In this document: positions 1 through 57,607 of the stretch, in pieces
How positions within the stretch are numbered: position 1 is the stretch's first letter
Layout: each line of letters starts with the position of its first letter
Origin: a virus
Lineage: Duplodnaviria > Caudoviricetes
IMG/VR virus record: IMGVR_UViG_3300028833_003520
Direction: 5' to 3' (one strand)
Length of the DNA: 64,000 nucleotides
The notes under the pieces: model-generated
The model's input: the letters and a program-made list of their open reading frames with translations, nothing else
Database searches by the model: none
Told to the model about the DNA's origin: nothing
Translations under genes and position numbers: made by a program

Positions 1-98
1 CTTCGAGAAAAAATCCGAAGATATTAAAATACCAAAGATTAGTGGCGACAAGATGCTTGAGCAGATTAAAGCCCGACAGGAGAAAGAAGGTAAATCAG

Positions 99-407
99 AT
101 GATAACTGACGCAATAAATCCTGTAGAGACAGGAGTTTGTATGAATTATGCAGTGCAGGACTTTGCATACGGTGTTACCGTTGCTCAAACCGAAACGGAT
201 AATCATACATCAAGACAGTTTGTAGGAGAGGATAATCACAAAATAACCTGTAAGGTTGGTGAGAAAGTGATTATCACTAATAAGGACGCTACTGGAGAGC
301 ATTTATGCGTTGGCGTGATTACTAACTTTGAAGATGATTTCATAGAAGTTGATGGAGCCATTATCGTAAAGTTTGAAGGTATTAGGTATATAGGTAGAAT
401 AGGATAA
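99..407 (+). CDS. hypothetical protein, small beta-rich (SH3/KOW-like), weakly similar to 2048..2344
   Basis: ORF with AGAAGG RBS before ATG 99; KVGEKVIITNK...GVITNF resembles KVGDKVVYANK...GTITGF of 2048..2344. Confidence 0.55.
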   Translation: MITDAINPVETGVCMNYAVQDFAYGVTVAQTETDNHTSRQFVGEDNHKITCKVGEKVIITNKDATGEHLCVGVITNFEDDFIEVDGAIIVKFEGIRYIGRIG

Positions 408-408
408 T

Positions 409-1320
409 ATGAAGAAAACAACTTGTGGTTTTTGTGGTTCGTGGATGGACGCAACCGATGAAAAGTGTCCTTCTTGCGGTGCTACTAATACGAGTTATGT
501 CAGAACGGCTGAAGATACTCCGAAGACTATCGAGGAGTTAAAGAAGTGGTGTTCTGATAATCATTTAGACCTTGCCAATATGCATATTCATATTGGAGAG
601 GACTATAAAGGACCAAAAGCCTTTGGTATCTATAAGGACGGTTCCAATTTTGTTGTTTATAAAAACAAAGATGCAGGCAGTAGGTCTGTTCGCTATGAAG
701 GACCTGACGAGGAGTATGCAGTAAATGAACTTCTTTTGAAGATTAAGAATATGATTCTTACGGCAAAAGAAGCAACATTAAATCCTGATAGCCCAAATCG
801 AAAATATGTCAAAAGTGAAGCAAAAAAGCCAGAGCCTTTGTCTGAGCCAGAGCCTCAGATATATCGTCAAACTAAAAGGTCCGGCTTTGATTGGAACTTT
901 TTAGTTTCGTTAATTCCTGTTGTTCTTCTGATTGCTTTTGTCATCTTTATGGTTGGCAGTTGTAATAGAACAATAGCCATAGGTCTTGAGAATGGTTATT
1001 ATGAGACACAGCCTTCTTATGGTCAGTTTTTCGTTGGTAATTTTAGTTACGAAAATCCAAGCCATTCATATTCGAATGATGACAGTAATACAAATCATAC
1101 TATCCAGTGGAATAACGATGATGATGATAACGATAGTGGTTGGAATTATAGTTATGATGATGATGATGACGATGATTGGGATTATGGTGGTTATGATTAC
1201 GACGACTACGATTACGACGACTACGATTGGGATGGCGGATGGGACTCCGATGATTGGGATGGCGGCTATGATAGTGGCTACGATTACGACAGTGGTTATG
1301 ACTGGGGAAGTGACTGGTAA
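409..1320 (+). CDS. Zn-ribbon membrane protein with Asp/Tyr/Trp/Gly-rich C-terminal tail
   Basis: CGFC...CPSC at N-terminus; one TM helix (FLVSLIPVVLLIAFVIFMVG); tail DYDDYDYDDYDWDGGWDSDDW. Confidence 0.75.
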   Translation: MKKTTCGFCGSWMDATDEKCPSCGATNTSYVRTAEDTPKTIEELKKWCSDNHLDLANMHIHIGEDYKGPKAFGIYKDGSNFVVYKNKDAGSRSVRYEGPDEEYAVNELLLKIKNMILTAKEATLNPDSPNRKYVKSEAKKPEPLSEPEPQIYRQTKRSGFDWNFLVSLIPVVLLIAFVIFMVGSCNRTIAIGLENGYYETQPSYGQFFVGNFSYENPSHSYSNDDSNTNHTIQWNNDDDDNDSGWNYSYDDDDDDDWDYGGYDYDDYDYDDYDWDGGWDSDDWDGGYDSGYDYDSGYDWGSDW

Positions 1321-1354
1321 GGAAGGCAATGTTATTAAGTTAAGGAATTTAGAG

Positions 1355-1795
1355 ATGATAAATTTGAGATTAGACGAAAACAATATAGATGAACTTCTTG
1401 ATTTTTGCGAAGGAAAATATCCGTTAACAAAGGAAATCGCCTGCAATATCTGTGTAGGAACACACCCTGTTAATCCTTGCACGCAGGTATATGGTGCATT
1501 TTGTAATGAAGATGGCAAAAGTGAACTTGTAGCGATAATGACTGCAACATACAGTATTGTATTTCCGCATAGAGATGGTACTCGAATGGTCCATATTAGC
1601 GGAGCATATACAAAAGATAATTTCAGGCATCAAGGATATGCATCGACTTTGCTAAAGGCTATTGAAAGAGATGCAAGGGATTGTTTTCAGGCAGATTACA
1701 TCTGTTGCGATTCTACAGCAAATAGCCTGTACAAGAAAAATGGCTTTCGAGAAGCACCAACTGATGAAACACGATTGTGGAAACAATTGTCTTAA
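1355..1795 (+). CDS. GNAT family N-acetyltransferase
   Basis: Motif A YTKDNFRHQGYASTLL and motif B LYKKNGF; start taken as ATG 1355 because the longer ORF overlaps the low-complexity tail of the upstream gene. Confidence 0.8.
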   Translation: MINLRLDENNIDELLDFCEGKYPLTKEIACNICVGTHPVNPCTQVYGAFCNEDGKSELVAIMTATYSIVFPHRDGTRMVHISGAYTKDNFRHQGYASTLLKAIERDARDCFQADYICCDSTANSLYKKNGFREAPTDETRLWKQLS

Positions 1796-1827
1796 CTTAA
1801 AACATTGGTAAGAAAGGAGATTTTTTT

Positions 1828-2034
1828 ATGGGTAAACGCTCGGCAAGAAAGAAAGCAAAGAAACGCTACTCTTATTATGCCAATAGGGGTCGGGAAATGC
1901 CCCAAAAGCCTGTAAGGTATCATTATACGGAGCATACAAGTAGCAGTTCTTATACAGGTGGTAGTGATGATTTCAATCGCAGACAACAGCAAATTAACGA
2001 TGCTGCGGCTTGCATACCGTTTATGATGATGTAA
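1828..2034 (+). CDS. small basic hypothetical protein
   Basis: Strong AAAGGAG RBS; 68 aa. Confidence 0.6.
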   Translation: MGKRSARKKAKKRYSYYANRGREMPQKPVRYHYTEHTSSSSYTGGSDDFNRRQQQINDAAACIPFMMM

Positions 2035-2047
2035 AGAGGAGTAAAAT

Positions 2048-2344
2048 ATGACTATTGATGTAAGAGATTGTGTTTATGGCGATATTCGCATTATTAACAT
2101 AAACGATTCAGATGAGAGGATTTTATCGGATAACCATAACAACAATATCCTTATCAAAGTAGGTGATAAAGTTGTTTATGCGAATAAGAGTATGTTTTAT
2201 AAGATTATTCGCACAGGTACAATCACTGGATTTGATAAGGAAGACCCGTCAAGGGTACACATTGGTGGTATATCCGTAAGTGTGCCTGGAGAGGCATATA
2301 TAGGTGTTCTAAATCCGACAGATGTAACGGTAAATCTTGAGTGA
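2048..2344 (+). CDS. hypothetical protein
   Basis: GAGGAG RBS; in operon. Confidence 0.65.
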   Translation: MTIDVRDCVYGDIRIININDSDERILSDNHNNNILIKVGDKVVYANKSMFYKIIRTGTITGFDKEDPSRVHIGGISVSVPGEAYIGVLNPTDVTVNLE

Positions 2345-2345
2345 T

Positions 2346-2888
2346 ATGAAGTTGCCAAAAGAATACAACAAGTCATTAAGACAATGGGCAAGAAATGTTG
2401 AAGAAGGCGATTACATTTTAGGTATCGCAGGCGTTTTGTTATCATCATTTATTGCACTTCCTTTCACCGTTAAAATCGTTTTAACGATAATGAAGGATTG
2501 TTGGATTTCAATATGGATTGGTGGCATCTGGTTAGCACTTGTGGTATTGGCAACGATTTCGGCAGTATTTGCGTCCGTTGCGAAAAACGGTATGAAAAAT
2601 GCCGAGAAGATTGTTGAAGAATATGATTGCGAAATAGCCACAGTACAAGATGTGTTATATAGTGGTTCGTCAACAAATCACTATCAGTTTATCTTTAATC
2701 TTAAAGATAAAAAGGATGCCAAAGTTCTCGCTGATATAGTTGATTGGGACGATATAACAGTACATCAAAAGGTTGGCAAAGAGGAATTTTATGTAGTTCA
2801 TATAGGACGATATTACTATGCGATTAAGAGGTCGGCAGACCCGTCATCGTATAGGTTGTTGGGCTTAGGTGAAGATATATTTTCTTGA
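2346..2888 (+). CDS. 2-TM membrane protein, tandem paralogue 1
   Basis: Starts MKLPKEYNKSLR; two hydrophobic helices; EYDC; beta-rich C-terminus. Confidence 0.7.
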   Translation: MKLPKEYNKSLRQWARNVEEGDYILGIAGVLLSSFIALPFTVKIVLTIMKDCWISIWIGGIWLALVVLATISAVFASVAKNGMKNAEKIVEEYDCEIATVQDVLYSGSSTNHYQFIFNLKDKKDAKVLADIVDWDDITVHQKVGKEEFYVVHIGRYYYAIKRSADPSSYRLLGLGEDIFS

Positions 2889-2901
2889 GAGGAGAAGTCT
2901 T

Positions 2902-3423
2902 ATGAATTTACCGTCAGAATACAACGAAAGATTGCGTTATGTAATCAAGAATGAAGCAGGAACTTATGCAGTAATCGTAGGAGTAGCGATGCTTTTGGTA
3001 AGTTATCCTTTTGCTAAACTTGTAGAAGACCTTTTCACAGAGTCGTTTACATCAGTACCAGAGTATGTGATTGTAGCAATTTCCATACTTTTCGTAGGAG
3101 CCGTAGTTGCTCTCTTCATAACGCAGTTGGTATCGCTTTCTTTCTTAAAGAAAGAGGAATATGATTGTCAATTGTGTACTATTAAGAATAAATTCTACAT
3201 TAAGAGCAATCCTGAAGGTGAGAAAGTGTCTTCTTATATATTGGTATTTGAAGAACCAAAAGTTCCAAACGCATTGGTTTCAAAAGAAGTATGGAAGTCA
3301 TCTTTTCAAGGAGACAAATGTTATGTAATCCGTTGTGGTATGTGGACATTTGCTTTCGAGACAGTAGAACGGTCTTCTGATGTGCGTAGATATATTGAGA
3401 ACGGTAAAGAGGTATGGGACTAA
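2902..3423 (+). CDS. 2-TM membrane protein, tandem paralogue 2
   Basis: Starts MNLPSEYNERLR; two TM; EYDC; GAGGAG RBS. Confidence 0.7.
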   Translation: MNLPSEYNERLRYVIKNEAGTYAVIVGVAMLLVSYPFAKLVEDLFTESFTSVPEYVIVAISILFVGAVVALFITQLVSLSFLKKEEYDCQLCTIKNKFYIKSNPEGEKVSSYILVFEEPKVPNALVSKEVWKSSFQGDKCYVIRCGMWTFAFETVERSSDVRRYIENGKEVWD

Positions 3424-3435
3424 AGGAGTGATAAA

Positions 3436-3930
3436 GTGATATTACCGAAAGAATATAACGCTCATCTTAAGCGTTGTGTTAAGCATAAAGATACAGCATT
3501 ATTACTGGTTGGTTCTTTAGGGATAATAGTGGCTACAGGCTTGCTTGTGGTCACTATACCAGTTATGCGTGATAAAAATAGCGATGGTATCTTGAAGTTA
3601 TCTGATATTGGTGCGATAGCGATATTTGCGTGTATGTTGCTCATAACGGTTACAATGGTGATTGTGGCAATAATGTCGCTTATTGCGATTCGAAAAAGTA
3701 AAACGGAATATAAATGTCAATGCTTTGCGTTAAAAAGCAAGGAACTACTCCGTAGTGCTGATGATGGAAATATAAGCGGATATATTCTTTACTTTGAGAA
3801 CAATAAAGGTAAAGAAATAAAGGCTGAACCCTATTCAGGTAGTGTTTGGTATTGGGCGAAGCCTAATGACAAGTTTTACATAGTTACAATAGGGTTCATT
3901 AACTATGCATTCGAGGTGAAAGATATATGA
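3436..3930 (+). CDS. 2-TM membrane protein, tandem paralogue 3
   Basis: GTG start after AAGGAG; MILPKEYNAHLK; two TM; EYKC. Confidence 0.7.
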   Translation: MILPKEYNAHLKRCVKHKDTALLLVGSLGIIVATGLLVVTIPVMRDKNSDGILKLSDIGAIAIFACMLLITVTMVIVAIMSLIAIRKSKTEYKCQCFALKSKELLRSADDGNISGYILYFENNKGKEIKAEPYSGSVWYWAKPNDKFYIVTIGFINYAFEVKDI

Positions 3931-4064
3931 ATACAACTGAAGGCATCATTTTCTTGATAATTCTTGTCGTGATATTAGGAATAATAGTGACAAGCATAAT
4001 TCGTGCCATATTTGAACCATCTTCAACCGAGGACTCTCGGTGCAGAGGTGGACACGATTTTTGA
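3927..4064 (+). CDS. small single-TM protein (45 aa, not in ORF track)
   Basis: GAGGTG RBS; ATGA overlap with upstream stop; MNTTEGIIFLIILVVILGIIVTSII. Confidence 0.5.
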   Translation: MNTTEGIIFLIILVVILGIIVTSIIRAIFEPSSTEDSRCRGGHDF

Positions 4065-4065
4065 G

Positions 4066-4106
4066 AAAAAAAAGAGGGGCATTCCTGTTAAGGAATACCC
4101 CTTTTC
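4066..4106. terminator. bidirectional intrinsic terminator
   Basis: A-tract, GGGGCATTCC...GGAATACCCC stem, T-tract; between convergent genes. Confidence 0.75.
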
Positions 4107-4129
4107 ATTAGCAATCAATGATGAATTGT

Positions 4130-4507
4130 TTAGACTACTTTCTTGATGGGAGCAGGGCGTACCTGTGCGTTAGACACAGTGCCGTGCTTTTCCATCTGCT
4201 TGAGTGCTCTACGATGCTCGTAACGACGCTGTGCGATTGCTTTCGCAACCTGTTCCTCATTCTTCATTGTTGCACCTGCTATACCGCCTGAAATGGCGAA
4301 TATAGCACAAGATACCCATACTCCTGTCCAAGTAGCAGATTCTTCTGCCTTGGTCATAGGAGTGTGCGTCTCATCAGCATAGTCGAAGTGTCCGACATAG
4401 CCTATCATAGCGAAAAAGGCGAGTGTAGCGATGAGTGCTGCAGGTATCATAACGATTCTTAACTTTGTTCTTTCCTTACGTAATCTTGCAAGACTTACAC
4501 GTTTCAT
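4130..4507 (-). CDS. 2-TM membrane protein
   Basis: GAAGGAG RBS before ATG 4507; two hydrophobic segments. Confidence 0.65.
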   Translation of the reverse strand: MKRVSLARLRKERTKLRIVMIPAALIATLAFFAMIGYVGHFDYADETHTPMTKAEESATWTGVWVSCAIFAISGGIAGATMKNEEQVAKAIAQRRYEHRRALKQMEKHGTVSNAQVRPAPIKKVV

Positions 4508-4650
4508 AGCGAGTTTCTCCTTCAAAGATAAGAATGAAGTTCAATAAGAACTAAGCCTTTTATGAAAATACGTGCAGTATTTGAATTGATTAAAGGGAGT
4601 AGTTAGATTAGAAATCCCAAACAAAAAGAACGGCTAATCAAAGCCGTTCC

Positions 4651-6387
4651 TTATATTCTGATAAGACCATTTATTGTCTGTCTCTGAAGGGGTACACAGA
4701 CCTTATCTTGGTCAGGTCCGTGATAACCTGGATTCATCCAATCCTTCAGGTCATAAACGAGGATTAAAGGCTCAGGTTTGAGCATTTTATCACCTGTCCT
4801 TATAGCCTTTGTCCTGCCAGGACAAATCCAACCGCAATCGGTTGTCTCAATTACTGCAAGAAGGTCAGTGATAAATGTGTTTTTACCTTGAAGCGAGCCG
4901 TTAGGCGAGTTCTTCTTAAACCACGCCTTATATCCATCGTAAAGGAATGCAAACGGCAGGACATCCCATACACAGCAAGGTAAGAATTCGTCAACGAATT
5001 GCTTGATAGGGTCGTTGAACATTTTGTAATCGTCCAATGCCGTGACGCATACATCAGGTTCAGAAAGTTCGTAATAGTTCATATTGAGAACTTTCCACAA
5101 AACATATTCGAGAACTTCTGTTCTACCAAGATAGTCATCTTTGATGTATCTTCTTTCGTGACCTGTGAAACACTTGTCAAAGGGCACGAATAATTGTCTT
5201 CTGTAGAATGAGTCGGATTTATCTTTAATTCGAGGCATCTCGTTGATACACTGAACCATAAATCCGTAGAACTGATAGGCGATAGGTGTCTTAAATTTTC
5301 TGTTCAACTGAATGACATCATTCGTGATGATGGCTTTCAGATTGGCAGCCTTGTCGATAAATTCACCGACGTTATTCTCGTCAACGATAATAGCGGTAGC
5401 CTGAAGCAGAGGTTCGAGCATAAAGTCTTTGCTGAAATCCGACAGAGGAATTGAAGCATAACTTTCTTTTCCACAAAGTTGTCTCATCAATTCGCAGAGC
5501 GTACCCTTACCGTTGTTACCTTTGTTGGAATAGAACCAAGCACTCTTGTTCCAACTAACGTGCGGTCTGATAATAGCACCTAAGATTTCCCAAAGGAGAT
5601 TTACGACCTGAGGGTTATCAGACAGTTCGTTCATCCAAGACTCGACATCCCAATCCGTATTATCAATAGGATTGTGGATAACAATGTTCGTGGCGTTAGG
5701 ATTGTAGTTGACACGAGATTTAGCGATGAAAACATACTTTGGGTCAAAATCATAGAGTTGTTTATCGGCATAATTAAAGATGCCGTTATTGACCGCAATC
5801 AAGTCTCTATCGGTGCATCTGACTTTTCTCTCTGCAAGGTCTTTCATTGCCATCTTAACTTCACTTATACCTTTAGAAGTGATGTTGTACTTAAATTGCC
5901 GAATGAGTTCGTTGAAGACATTATCTTTAGTTACATAGATACCCTTGTCGTGACCTTTATCTTGATAGATAGCAAGAAGGTCATACTCAACATCAGCGTT
6001 GGCTCCTGCACAAGCGATACGACAAATAGGGTACATAAACAGCAAAATATCCGCTATCTGCGATTCAGACAGGGAAGAGGGAAGTTGCCATTTTTCGCCT
6101 TTTTCAGCGTTAGCGTTATGTGCCTGGAAACAATCTATTGTAAGACGCAGTAAATCCTGTTGGATTTCTGACGGTGTTTTGCTTTTGTTGAAGAGGTTGC
6201 TCTCAAGATAATGTTTAGTGATGAGTTTCATATAGTCGTCTTTGGAACACAGTTCTGCAGAATTGGATAAATCAGCAAGAACTCTTGTATATTCAAGACC
6301 ATATGTAGCATCAGCATCAACGGTAGTGGCAGTATCAGTTTCAGATTCTAAAATTTCATCAGATACGATATTCTCGTCCTTAGGCAT
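4651..6387 (-). CDS. phage/plasmid D5/P4-type primase-associated SF3 helicase
   Basis: D5_N-like DLIAVNNGIFN; Walker A GNNGKGT; Walker B IIVDE; motif C CINEMP; FYRR arginine finger. Confidence 0.88.
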   Translation of the reverse strand: MPKDENIVSDEILESETDTATTVDADATYGLEYTRVLADLSNSAELCSKDDYMKLITKHYLESNLFNKSKTPSEIQQDLLRLTIDCFQAHNANAEKGEKWQLPSSLSESQIADILLFMYPICRIACAGANADVEYDLLAIYQDKGHDKGIYVTKDNVFNELIRQFKYNITSKGISEVKMAMKDLAERKVRCTDRDLIAVNNGIFNYADKQLYDFDPKYVFIAKSRVNYNPNATNIVIHNPIDNTDWDVESWMNELSDNPQVVNLLWEILGAIIRPHVSWNKSAWFYSNKGNNGKGTLCELMRQLCGKESYASIPLSDFSKDFMLEPLLQATAIIVDENNVGEFIDKAANLKAIITNDVIQLNRKFKTPIAYQFYGFMVQCINEMPRIKDKSDSFYRRQLFVPFDKCFTGHERRYIKDDYLGRTEVLEYVLWKVLNMNYYELSEPDVCVTALDDYKMFNDPIKQFVDEFLPCCVWDVLPFAFLYDGYKAWFKKNSPNGSLQGKNTFITDLLAVIETTDCGWICPGRTKAIRTGDKMLKPEPLILVYDLKDWMNPGYHGPDQDKVCVPLQRQTINGLIRI

Positions 6388-55019: not shown

Positions 55020-55331
55020 ATGAGTGGTTTTATTTTAACAACGAAGTCAGGTAGTATTTACACCTTTGAGAAGAACAAGGATAATCCGTATCACACAATG
55101 TCGAGTGAAAAATTCGGTAAGAAAGAAGTGAGTGTTGATAGTGCAGTTATGTGTGGTGCTCCTTTTCAGTTTACTTGCACCGATAATGAGATGAATGGCG
55201 ATTTGAGAGGTAAGCCGATTAGAACATCTGTTGTTGAAAAGATTAGATGTTTTGATGACCAACCGAGAAGACTTCCTGATGTGCCTATACAGCAGACTGG
55301 ATATTCGGCACAGCAGGGTTATGGTGAGTAA
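55020..55331 (+). CDS. small protein with PRRLPDVP...GYGE tail
   Basis: Last gene of the + strand block. Confidence 0.7.
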   Translation: MSGFILTTKSGSIYTFEKNKDNPYHTMSSEKFGKKEVSVDSAVMCGAPFQFTCTDNEMNGDLRGKPIRTSVVEKIRCFDDQPRRLPDVPIQQTGYSAQQGYGE

Positions 55332-55373
55332 AAAAAAAAAGAGAGGCAACTCGATTGAGTTGTCTCTCTTTTT
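55330..55373. terminator. bidirectional terminator at the convergence of the two transcription blocks
   Basis: A11-GAGAGGCAACTC-gatt-GAGTTGTCTCTC-T5. Confidence 0.85.
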
Positions 55374-55375
55374 GC

Positions 55376-55555
55376 TTAACGTCTTTCCTTTAAGAAAGTC
55401 TTGCTATCCATTCCGTTCATATCGGCGGCACGTTTGATAATCTTTTTCTTATCACCGTGAACGCCAGGAATGGGAGTCTGCTTGGGGTCCGAGGCACTGC
55501 AGATGCCGTATTCTTTTGAACCCTTAATTTTTACGATATCGTAAGTTAATGCCAT
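55376..55555 (-). CDS. small protein (59 aa, not in ORF track)
   Basis: MALTYDIVKIKGSKEYGICSASDPKQTPIPGVHGDKKKIIKRAADMNGMDSKTFLKERR; AGAAAGGA upstream. Confidence 0.55.
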   Translation of the reverse strand: MALTYDIVKIKGSKEYGICSASDPKQTPIPGVHGDKKKIIKRAADMNGMDSKTFLKERR

Positions 55556-55610
55556 TCACATATGTTTTCCTTTCTTTAGATTTGATGAAAGACGTATTCA
55601 TTACATCAAG

Positions 55611-55700
55611 ACTACTGATTTAAGGAAGTTGCCTCTCGCTCTGGACAGCGTTCATAACTCAATATTAGGGCAACCTATCTTCCAGCCTTAAATCAGCACT
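55611..55700 (-). ncRNA. small structured RNA element with possible pseudoknot in the 5' leader
   Basis: CTGATTTAAGG/CCTTAAATCAG outer stem, GTTGCC/GGCAAC inner stem, CGCT/AGCG hairpin whose loop can pair with CTGGA. Confidence 0.45.
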
Positions 55701-55717
55701 ATTCATATAATGAGGCT

Positions 55718-55756
55718 AAAAAAATAGACCATACGGTTTTCCGTATAGTCTATTTT
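55718..55756 (-). terminator. intrinsic terminator of the large ncRNA
   Basis: AAAATAGACTATACGG-AAAA-CCGTATGGTCTATTTTTTT on the minus strand. Confidence 0.8.
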
Positions 55757-55777
55757 AGGGTAGAAGGGTTGGAATCG

Positions 55778-56464
55778 TCAATTAACATTACAGTATATTA
55801 TATCTGGCTTTTTATCACCTACACCATCTGCACTACTGTTTATCACGCTAATAGGAACACAAGTCTGAGCATAGGCAGGCAACTCCTATACTTCTTGCGT
55901 TGAGCCGAGGCTCCATAGCCTATGAGGGATTGATACCCCCAGCCGTCACCCACTTGGACGAATCCAAGCAAAACCATTCAGAAGAAGTAGGGATATTTCA
56001 TATTCCTAAAAAATCGTCATCTTCTTCCGCCTTGGGCTACAGACAAGTGTGGCTTGCGTTATAGTCACCATTACAGTGACATCACGGCGAATCATCTTGG
56101 GGTGCATTCCCAACAGAGCATCCTCATTTGCGGTGAGGTGGGTAGTAATTAGACGAGTCTAATACTACGCTTATTGGGTTATTCTCCCACAGGGAGCGTC
56201 TATTGCGATGACCACAAGCCCACTTACGCTAACATCATACAGGTGTGTGCTATGTCCCGTGAAACGAATATTGTTATACCGCTTGAACGATGGTCACCCA
56301 AGAATCGACAGTTCCAAATGGAAACCCAAATGGAAGAGCGACGTTCAAATTGCCCACAAGAGAAGTATCCTTCTCTATCAGGCTTTTTCGGTGGGACGTA
56401 CCTCAGCAGGGTGGTTAACCCTTCGTGCACTGAGTTACATATAACACACTGTAATGTCAATTCA
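55778..56464 (-). ncRNA. large (~690 nt) structured ncRNA, ROOL-like candidate
   Basis: 5' and 3' ends form a ~24-bp helix whose three mismatches are G-U only on the minus strand; many internal hairpins; raised GC; no credible ORF; own terminator. The family name is a guess from size and context. Confidence 0.7.
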
Positions 56465-56602
56465 CAACAAAAGTTTTATGAAAAACCGAGTAGGTTTTGA
56501 ATTTAAGGGGACAAAAAGAGGGAGATTTCTCTCCCTCTTAATGCTCCGAAGTTTTCACAGAATGTTTGGAACAATATGTATCAACTGTTCTGTGAACTTC
56601 AC

Positions 56603-57607
56603 TTACTGTATTCTTCCGTTAGATGCTTTAACAAGCAGGGGATAAGCAATCTTCATTACTTCGACCATCTGAGGATGAGGCTTGCCTGTAACACCGTGAC
56701 AACGAAGGTTTACGATATGCTGCCACTCACGTTCAGTAGCCGTGATGAAAATCTCGGTCTTGAGTGAGTTAGGCAGTACGCTACGAGCCTCTTGCGGTGT
56801 AGCACCTTTCTCAATGAGTTCGAAGTAAGCCTTTTCACAAGCCTTGCAAGCATTCTTCCAAATCTTGTATTCCTCGCTACTTGTATTCCAGTAGAAAGGT
56901 TCAATGACAGTGATTTCTTCACCGAACTGACCTTTTGTATAGTTGCAGTAGCGTGTGGATTCCTGACCGAAAGATGCAGGTCTGTGTCGCACGAATTCGT
57001 GAGAAACTCCTCTGTCACAAGTGAAAAGAACTGTGTGAACGATGAAATCGGAAGGTTCATCTCCAGAAATTGTGTTAGCAACTTCGTCACGAGGGACAAC
57101 TCTGACAAGAGGACTCTCGTTAAGTTCTTTCTCAATGATAGAGAAGGACATTACGTTATCTTCCTTACAAGTTTCGGTAATTGCAGGGAAGAGTTCAGGG
57201 TAAGCGGCGTGAAGAGCGTGCTGAATGCCGTGTCCGTCACCGACAACAATACCTGTATTAACGAAATCCATCCAAGTGCGGAATGAAGCCATAACGATGC
57301 CTGATACTTCGTCAAATTTCATATAGTTACGCATTGCGTAACGAGGATGCTGGTCAGCGTGTGCAGTCATTGTTGCCCAAATATCTTTCGCAAGATTCTT
57401 TCTGCGGTCGATATAGGCAAGATAGATGTCCTCGTGTTCGAGCATAGCACCGTGCTTGTGTGCAGCGAGACCTTTGACAAATCCGACGGCAGATTCGGGC
57501 GTAATCTTGTCTTCAGACTTGTAACAAGTGCGTCCGACCTTTTCGATAAAGGCATAGGGATGCACATTGTGTTCAATCAGTTGAGCATTAGGTTTGATAA
57601 TGTTCAT
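56603..57607 (-). CDS. thyX: flavin-dependent thymidylate synthase
   Basis: GRTCYKS; HGAMLEH; DRGVSHEFVRHRPASFGQESTRY (RHRx7S); EARSVLPN; HPQM. Confidence 0.93.
   Translation of the reverse strand: MNIIKPNAQLIEHNVHPYAFIEKVGRTCYKSEDKITPESAVGFVKGLAAHKHGAMLEHEDIYLAYIDRRKNLAKDIWATMTAHADQHPRYAMRNYMKFDEVSGIVMASFRTWMDFVNTGIVVGDGHGIQHALHAAYPELFPAITETCKEDNVMSFSIIEKELNESPLVRVVPRDEVANTISGDEPSDFIVHTVLFTCDRGVSHEFVRHRPASFGQESTRYCNYTKGQFGEEITVIEPFYWNTSSEEYKIWKNACKACEKAYFELIEKGATPQEARSVLPNSLKTEIFITATEREWQHIVNLRCHGVTGKPHPQMVEVMKIAYPLLVKASNGRIQ

Follow-up and report, generated by a model that had tools for sequence, protein, structure and literature searches.

A complete, transcribed and divergent ROOL RNA gene downstream of thyX in rumen DNA

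To our knowledge, no biological role has been established for any ROOL RNA. The solved members of the family have a flat monomer fold, and eight copies form a 28-nm hollow cage without protein, with the variable linker disordered inside it (PMC12286853; Ling et al., as summarised in PMC12515178). One of them, env-120, is a 659-nt RNA from cow rumen, which was found by cryo-EM to form an octamer (Kretsch et al. 2025, PMC12286853). A ROOL encoded by a plasmid has been described as the lncRNA of Ligilactobacillus salivarius UCC118 megaplasmid pMP118 (Cousin et al. 2017, PMC5643018); it is more abundant than 16S rRNA, and its deletion caused no clear phenotype (PMC5643018). The occurrence of ROOLs outside prophages was already noted by Weinberg 2017 (PMC5737381). 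GOLLD (RF02032) resembles ROOL: both are large, ornate RNAs encoded by mobile elements, both build cages of RNA only, and their genomic habits are similar, but GOLLD has another fold and forms a 14-mer cage (PMC12286853).

The gene described here occupies about 690 nt (55,778-56,464) of a 64-kb stretch of DNA, which we call the window. An earlier note, made from the sequence alone, had marked this segment as a large, end-paired RNA of the ROOL/GOLLD class, the family assignment being offered as a guess. Comparison with Rfam 15 using Infernal decided for ROOL: RF03087 matches the minus strand at 55787-56458 (672 nt) with 198.1 bits (gathering threshold 99.1; E 4e-43), the match covers all model positions (1-574 of 574) and is not truncated, and ROOL was the sole family that cmscan placed above gathering anywhere in the window. 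GOLLD gave no match in the window at its gathering threshold, nor in 55400-56900 at E<=1. A match to NPPA-AS1_3 at 55469-55578 (24 bits, gathering threshold 55) was set aside as chance. The consensus helices of the ROOL model are formed, about 12 of the approximately 150 displayed pairs being non-standard (24 flagged positions in the NC line, counted by hand). The signature blocks GGAUAC, CAAUAGACG, GUAGCCC, UUCUGAAU, GGGUGA, UCAAUCCC and GCUCAGACUU are all present and follow each other in the order of the family, with GUAGCC and CAAUCCC among the conserved blocks that are kept. The predicted fold of the 687-nt stretch has -238 kcal/mol (z -6.3 relative to dinucleotide shuffles), and covariation, which the earlier note had asked about, is published for the family (PMC12286853, Supplementary Table 3). 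We consider it practically certain that the stretch is a ROOL RNA gene, neither GOLLD nor a new class.

The segment is a complete, transcribed ROOL gene and at the same time a divergent copy within a catalogued family. Its bit score is below that of all 12 viral-contig ROOLs compared (257-394 bits), whereas the L. salivarius ROOL scores lower still (130 bits). When the window ROOL was used as blastn query, only the ~30-nt CAAUAGACG block was matched in other ROOLs; no near DNA relatives were found in the phage or plasmid collections, there were no exact 30-mer matches in IMG/VR, and a search of IMG/VR for the locus by means of thyX found nothing. The RNA is longer than the model (672 nt vs 574 positions) through three insertions, of 54 nt in P3b, 49 nt in P8 and 22 nt after the linker. 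With env-120 it shares the Rfam family, the rumen habitat, similar length (659 vs 672 nt), the expanded P3b, a hairpin between the B1 site and GGGUGA, the register of B1, the UUGC loop of B6, the CAAUAGACG/P7 arrangement (B3) and a variable linker. The two differ in that their primary sequences, compared by short motifs only, are very divergent, and env-120 has a simple-hairpin P8 and a 4-bp B4 (GGUA:UACC), whereas the window copy has a three-way junction and at most 3 bp. The metagenome scan for the env-120-like subgroup yielded one locus only, L098, which carries the post-linker hairpin at the insertion site used by env-120 and the window copy, and has a simple P8.

The two ends of the RNA are joined by the long closing helix P1. 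Its 5' strand (56439-56462, minus strand like all other parts of the gene) extends 4 nt past the Rfam match, its 3' strand lies at 55780-55803, and the arms pair at 24 of 24 positions, with 21 Watson-Crick and three G-U pairs; the repeat search reported them as an inverted repeat (55777-55803 / 56439-56465), 85% complementary as DNA. Since the three mismatches between the DNA arms become G-U pairs in the minus-sense RNA only, the earlier call of the minus strand, which had been derived from this pairing, is sound. Each of the motifs quoted in the earlier note was found in its place when the minus strand of 55500-56800 was read. The hairpin CUUGGA-UUCG-UCCAAG (55953-55968, placed by alignment between the B1 site and GGGUGA) is real and is the 22-nt insertion relative to the ROOL consensus. 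The hairpin GUAGUAUUAGAC/GUCUAAUUACUAC (56142-56168) is likewise real; it lies within the 49-nt insertion, beside a second hairpin, CCUCA-CCGCAAA-UGAGG. For the proposed helix ACACUUGUCUG/CAGACUUGUGU the complementarity exists, but the helix conflicts with the consensus and does not belong to the family structure; we did not count it because CUUGUGUU pairs with AACGCAAG in the long 3' hairpin of the consensus. The element AAAAAGCC-N-GAUA does occur twice, at 56388 and 55813, but env-120 has a counterpart (AAAAGCCUAUGAU) of the 3' copy alone, and the repetition is therefore probably coincidental. The variable linker (55982-56035), which is the loop of the GUAGCCC...GGGUGA stem, aligns to an unstructured A/U-rich loop of the model.

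The placement of the RNA between the terminator of thyX and a terminator of its own was borne out, both structures folding strongly. The thyX terminator (56516-56539; -23.6 kcal/mol, z -4.3) belongs to the upstream neighbour, which encodes a flavin-dependent thymidylate synthase (56603-57607, minus; Pfam Thy1, E 8e-34), and isolates ROOL from the upstream operon. The intrinsic terminator of the ROOL unit (55721-55756) consists of a 16-bp stem with a GAAA-type loop and a U7 tail (-20.7 kcal/mol, z -6.4). Between the thyX terminator and ROOL the sequence reads as a spacer of 51 nt (56463-56513), in which we infer the promoter. The spacer contains a weak sigma-70-like pair (TTCAAA / 16 nt / CATAAA), and no site in it reached 9/12 in the sigma-70 scan. 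It also contains a 6-bp hairpin, AAAACC-TACTC-GGTTTT on the minus strand; in the plus-strand reading (56468-56498) this is CAAAAGT, 7 nt, AAAACC-GAGTA-GGTTTT. A 'CAMARRT box plus hairpin' was considered as a promoter element but is not established, as there are six plus-strand and six minus-strand instances in the 64 kb without clear pattern.

Some observations concern the neighbours of the gene. Pfam Thy1 covers only residues 188-304 of the 334-aa thyX product (profile positions 56-167 of 191), and tblastn matches to phage thyX are split in two pieces, a pattern suggesting that the protein is extended N-terminally or carries an insertion. In a strain variant, L003 (Logan DRR507844), an additional ORF of 69 aa (L003 1682-1891) separates the thyX stop from the hairpin/terminator preceding ROOL; the insertion point corresponds to ~56597-56602 of the window, and the ROOL side is otherwise nearly identical. 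The 79.5-kb contig L001 (JGI Ga0255061_10000001) terminates at ROOL's 5' flank, 84 nt beyond the thyX stop; in this sample the assembly broke at the ROOL gene. On the other side, between the ROOL terminator and a 59-aa ORF (55376-55555, minus), there is an inverted repeat of 28 nt (55598-55713; 82% complementary, 60 nt between the arms), which could be a 5'-UTR structure of the ORF. An RNA contig of run X16 spans 55364-55685. The L. salivarius ROOL also has a small same-strand gene downstream, but there it encodes an HTH regulator, whereas the 59-aa ORF has no detectable similarity and no Pfam match, and we dropped the idea that it is a ROOL-linked regulator of the L. salivarius type.

Metagenomes of 14 studies, from the rumen or gut of sheep and cattle, contain the stretch; six of the entries are RNA libraries. 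Four metatranscriptome runs from four studies were compared over 55300-57000, and each contained one contig of the ROOL body with nothing else in it: 55807-56439 in X15, 55819-56401 in X16, 55825-56455 in X19 and 55804-56439 in X20 (583-635 nt, jointly 55804-56455). In none of the four RNA runs was ROOL connected by a contig with thyX or the downstream ORF. In X15 the ROOL contig had a k-mer depth of 103.6 and its neighbour one of 6.9; in X16 the values were 4074 for ROOL, and 88 and 24 for its neighbours. The ROOL contigs had 15-46 times the depth of same-run neighbours, a ratio to be read with caution, as the depth of contigs reflects expression poorly. The evidence consists of assembled contigs, from which neither strand nor true ends can be read, and the pattern is what a discrete, abundant and stable RNA would give. 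It parallels the abundance of the L. salivarius ROOL (PMC5643018), which is a very abundant and stable RNA. The earlier note had named the lack of a transcript as an argument against its proposal; ROOL-sized contigs are present in rumen metatranscriptomes. The DNA runs X1-X3 contain all sampled words of the 1.1-kb stretch. Between sheep and cattle samples the ROOL is nearly unchanged. The strain variants X19, X20 and L003 show nine substitutions and a few indels relative to the window copy, the indels and three of the nine substitutions being located at 55969-56018, in the linker region.

To judge whether the RNA could assemble like its solved relatives, we used the list of bridges in the env-120 octamer (PMC12286853, Supplementary Table 2) and the env-120 sequence (Table 4), whose numbering was checked on several listed residues; the two RNAs were compared through short motifs only. 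In env-120, B1 is formed by A38-C41 (AAUC, L2 loop) and G465-U468 (GAUU directly after UCUGAAU) (PMC12286853). The window copy has the L2 loop UUAACCA (56413-56419, by alignment in the env-120 register) and UGGUU directly after CUGAAU, and can thus form AACCA:UGGUU in the register of env-120; the 3' partner, UUCUGAAU followed by GGUU(U) in the 3' flank of the linker, lies at 55969-55981, coordinates which were derived from position 478 of the 672-nt match and hold to +/-2 nt. Variants in the same register are found in L098 (UAACCAU:AUGGUUA), L026 (CGUCAU:AUGACG) and L053 (AUCAU:AUGAU). Across 23 distinct ROOLs the mean complementarity between loop and flank was 3.74 compared with 3.34 in shuffled pairings, a value reached by eight of 2000 shuffles. 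For the window copy alone, at least 5 bp arise in 13% of composition-preserving flank shuffles, therefore the weight rests on register and covariation rather than on the number of base pairs. Judged by these, the B1 kissing loop is kept through compensatory change. The window copy also retains the GC of the UUGC loop (B6), the C bulged out ahead of P7 together with the G of the P7 loop (B3), and the conserved UCUGA/UCAGA element pair.

The exception is B4, the contact between the P8 loop and J8/6, which has been described as highly conserved. In nine other ROOLs we found 4-5 covarying base pairs at this position (among them UGGCA:UGCCA, UGGU:ACCA, UGGA:UCCA, UGUGC:GCACA and UGAGA:UCUCA). In the window copy P8 (approximately 56086-56176, counting J8/6 AAUGCACCCC) forms a three-way junction, with two additional hairpins in the 49-nt insertion, and B4 is down to about 3 bp, the best candidate being GCA in the P8b loop CCGCAAA with UGC in J8/6 (AAUGCACC). 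The P7-P9 core is, at 164 nt, the longest of those compared; it measures 130-148 nt in ~80 ROOLs of viral contigs, a range that leaves out three loci with misplaced anchors. By analogy, we lean towards the view that the window copy would form an octameric cage, and hold this with limited confidence because the conserved B4 bridge is weakened.

Several other explanations have to be weighed against that of a functional ROOL gene. The terminal inverted repeat of 24-27 nt and the presence of ORFs of 78-108 aa on both strands would be compatible with a MITE or other mobile DNA, or with genes for small proteins, in which case the RNA structure would be incidental. This is hardly credible: the covariance-model match (E 4e-43) spans the interior as well as the ends, the mismatches of the arms are G-U on one strand only, and strain variants carry 1-nt indels within the region. 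Moreover, because the ORFs of the region have no Pfam match at E 0.1, the element has no flanking direct repeats, and neither the window nor the phage and plasmid collections contained a second copy, both the MITE, which the earlier note had itself raised, and the coding alternative fall. A closer rival accepts that the RNA derives from ROOL, and holds that it makes no canonical octamer but stays a monomer or assembles with other stoichiometry, owing to the three-way-junction P8 and the eroded B4. The long P7-P9 core, the reduction of B4 to GCA:UGC where nine other ROOLs have 4-5 bp, and a score that is the lowest in the viral-contig comparison set all point in this direction, but the L. salivarius ROOL scores even lower, and the ROOL scaffold tolerates deletions and fusions according to the summary of Ling et al. 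in PMC12515178. As B1, B3, B6 and UCUGA/UCAGA are intact, and the RNA is nearly unchanged between sheep and cattle and strongly represented in RNA libraries, we think that such an altered assembly is unlikely.

A further alternative concerns the ends of the molecule. rRNAs are released from flanking stems by a double-strand-specific nuclease, and P1 might similarly be a processing stem, from which such a nuclease would free a mature RNA corresponding to the 633-636-nt core (55804-56439). Two of the RNA contigs, from two studies and two platforms, end exactly at 56439 (one of them running into adapter) and begin at 55807 and 55804, i.e. at the inner ends of the P1 helix, but the contig of a third study reaches 56455. 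Since the ends of contigs are not reliable, and reverse transcription or priming can just as well be stopped by a stable helix, the ends inside the P1 arms are a weak hint of either processing or such a block. Processing is implied in L. salivarius, where a reporter assay put the promoter 225-450 nt ahead of the mature RNA (PMC5643018). On the other hand, P1 shows covariation and is an ordered part of the env-120 structure (PMC12286853), and the L. salivarius ROOL, which is 543 nt by Rfam and lacks P7, measured 520 nt by cRACE, indicating that most of P1 is retained; the difference of 23 nt is too small to be taken as support for P1 removal in that RNA. Taken together, we regard removal of P1 as quite unlikely in the window ROOL.

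We thus return, with high confidence, to the reading that this is a functional ROOL gene, which forms its own minus-strand unit and yields a discrete, abundant RNA with the ROOL fold and, by analogy and less certainly, the cage. Transcription would proceed from the minus strand as a separate short unit, starting in the 51-nt spacer past the thyX terminator and ending at the terminator at 55756-55721, to give an abundant, discrete RNA of ~650-690 nt, the exact ends of which we infer. In the folded molecule the long P1 would enclose multistem junctions, and the variable linker would form a flexible loop. If the RNA behaves like the three solved ROOLs, eight copies would then associate through loop-loop and A-minor bridges into a protein-free hollow cage of D4 symmetry, the linker facing inward. 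What such a particle would do can be suggested only tentatively: ROOL could be a stable RNA particle of mobile elements that sequesters or scaffolds a factor of the host or of the element, to the benefit of the latter. It is possible that the RNA is transcribed by the element's own polymerase-like enzyme. One may also combine these elements and imagine a ROOL subtype of giant conjugative-plasmid-like elements, in which the P8 three-way junction replaces the B4 ring contact and alters the geometry or stoichiometry of the cage, P1 is a processing stem removed in vivo, and the RNA is possibly made by the giant RNA-polymerase-like protein of the element, but we find the combination as a whole improbable.

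The polymerase-like protein belongs to a carrier that departs from the typical, though not obligatory, ROOL context of a phage or prophage with tRNA genes nearby. The 64 kb of the window contain no tRNA genes; of 20 loci fetched for comparison from IMG/VR by a ROOL-specific pattern, 19 have tRNAs, often with tmRNA. The ROOLs of tRNA islands on phage contigs (IMG/VR L004-L094) and in the metagenome locus L098 are of the same family and give full-length matches; those of L004-L094 differ from the window copy by their scores of 257-394 bits, their position among tRNAs, often with a tmRNA, and their simple P8. On the viral contigs L026, L083, L035, L004, L057 and L024 (114-144 kb) ROOL lies at most 2 kb from a phage tmRNA and tRNA arrays. 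The 5.9-kb contig L098 (Ga0129306_1006614, 1-5916) has on one strand a 671-nt ROOL (218 bits), a GOLLD (191 bits) and more than 20 tRNAs; both cage-forming RNAs are thus found within a single tRNA island. The L. salivarius gene resembles ours in its location on a large plasmid (pMP118; 242 kb, MOBP) and in not being beside tRNAs.

Among the 20 ORFs scanned, PHROGs gave no match to capsid, portal, terminase or tail proteins. The plus strand of the window encodes, between 16922 and 33298 and in this order, an AAA/Lon-like ATPase (606 aa), a 763-aa protein, a VirD4/TraG-like coupling protein (1458 aa), a 252-aa protein and an RNA-polymerase-like protein of 2136 aa, which contains Pfam RNA_pol_Rpb1_2 (Rpb1 domain 2). 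The latter had no match in 50,697 phage records; it matches hypothetical proteins on large plasmids of Streptomyces, Gordonia and Rhodococcus (31-33% identity over 76-77% of the length) and, more weakly, proteins on Staphylococcus and Lactococcus plasmids. In Gordonia pGKT2 (L095) an AAA ATPase, a hypothetical protein, a giant type IV coupling protein and a giant RNAP-like protein follow each other as in the window. Shine-Dalgarno motifs precede 33 of the 43 ORFs of the window, which fits a Firmicute host, and the thyX-ROOL locus also occurs on contigs of the 0.2-1 Mb class. The best reading is that the carrier is a conjugative-plasmid-like element of more than 200 kb from a rumen Firmicute, and not a recognisable phage.

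Conceptually little of this is new, as ROOL is a catalogued family with three solved structures, and a copy on a megaplasmid is known from L. salivarius. The unusual features of the window copy, the P8/B4 region, the tRNA-free 64 kb and the plasmid-like carrier, are of mild interest. The gene provides a naturally abundant rumen ROOL with direct support from metatranscriptomes, and, being a natural variant of B4 and P8, it could be used to find out how many of the bridges in the network are required for the cage. The occurrence of a ROOL outside phages and tRNA islands argues against a function that is strictly tied to tRNAs or to phage lysis.
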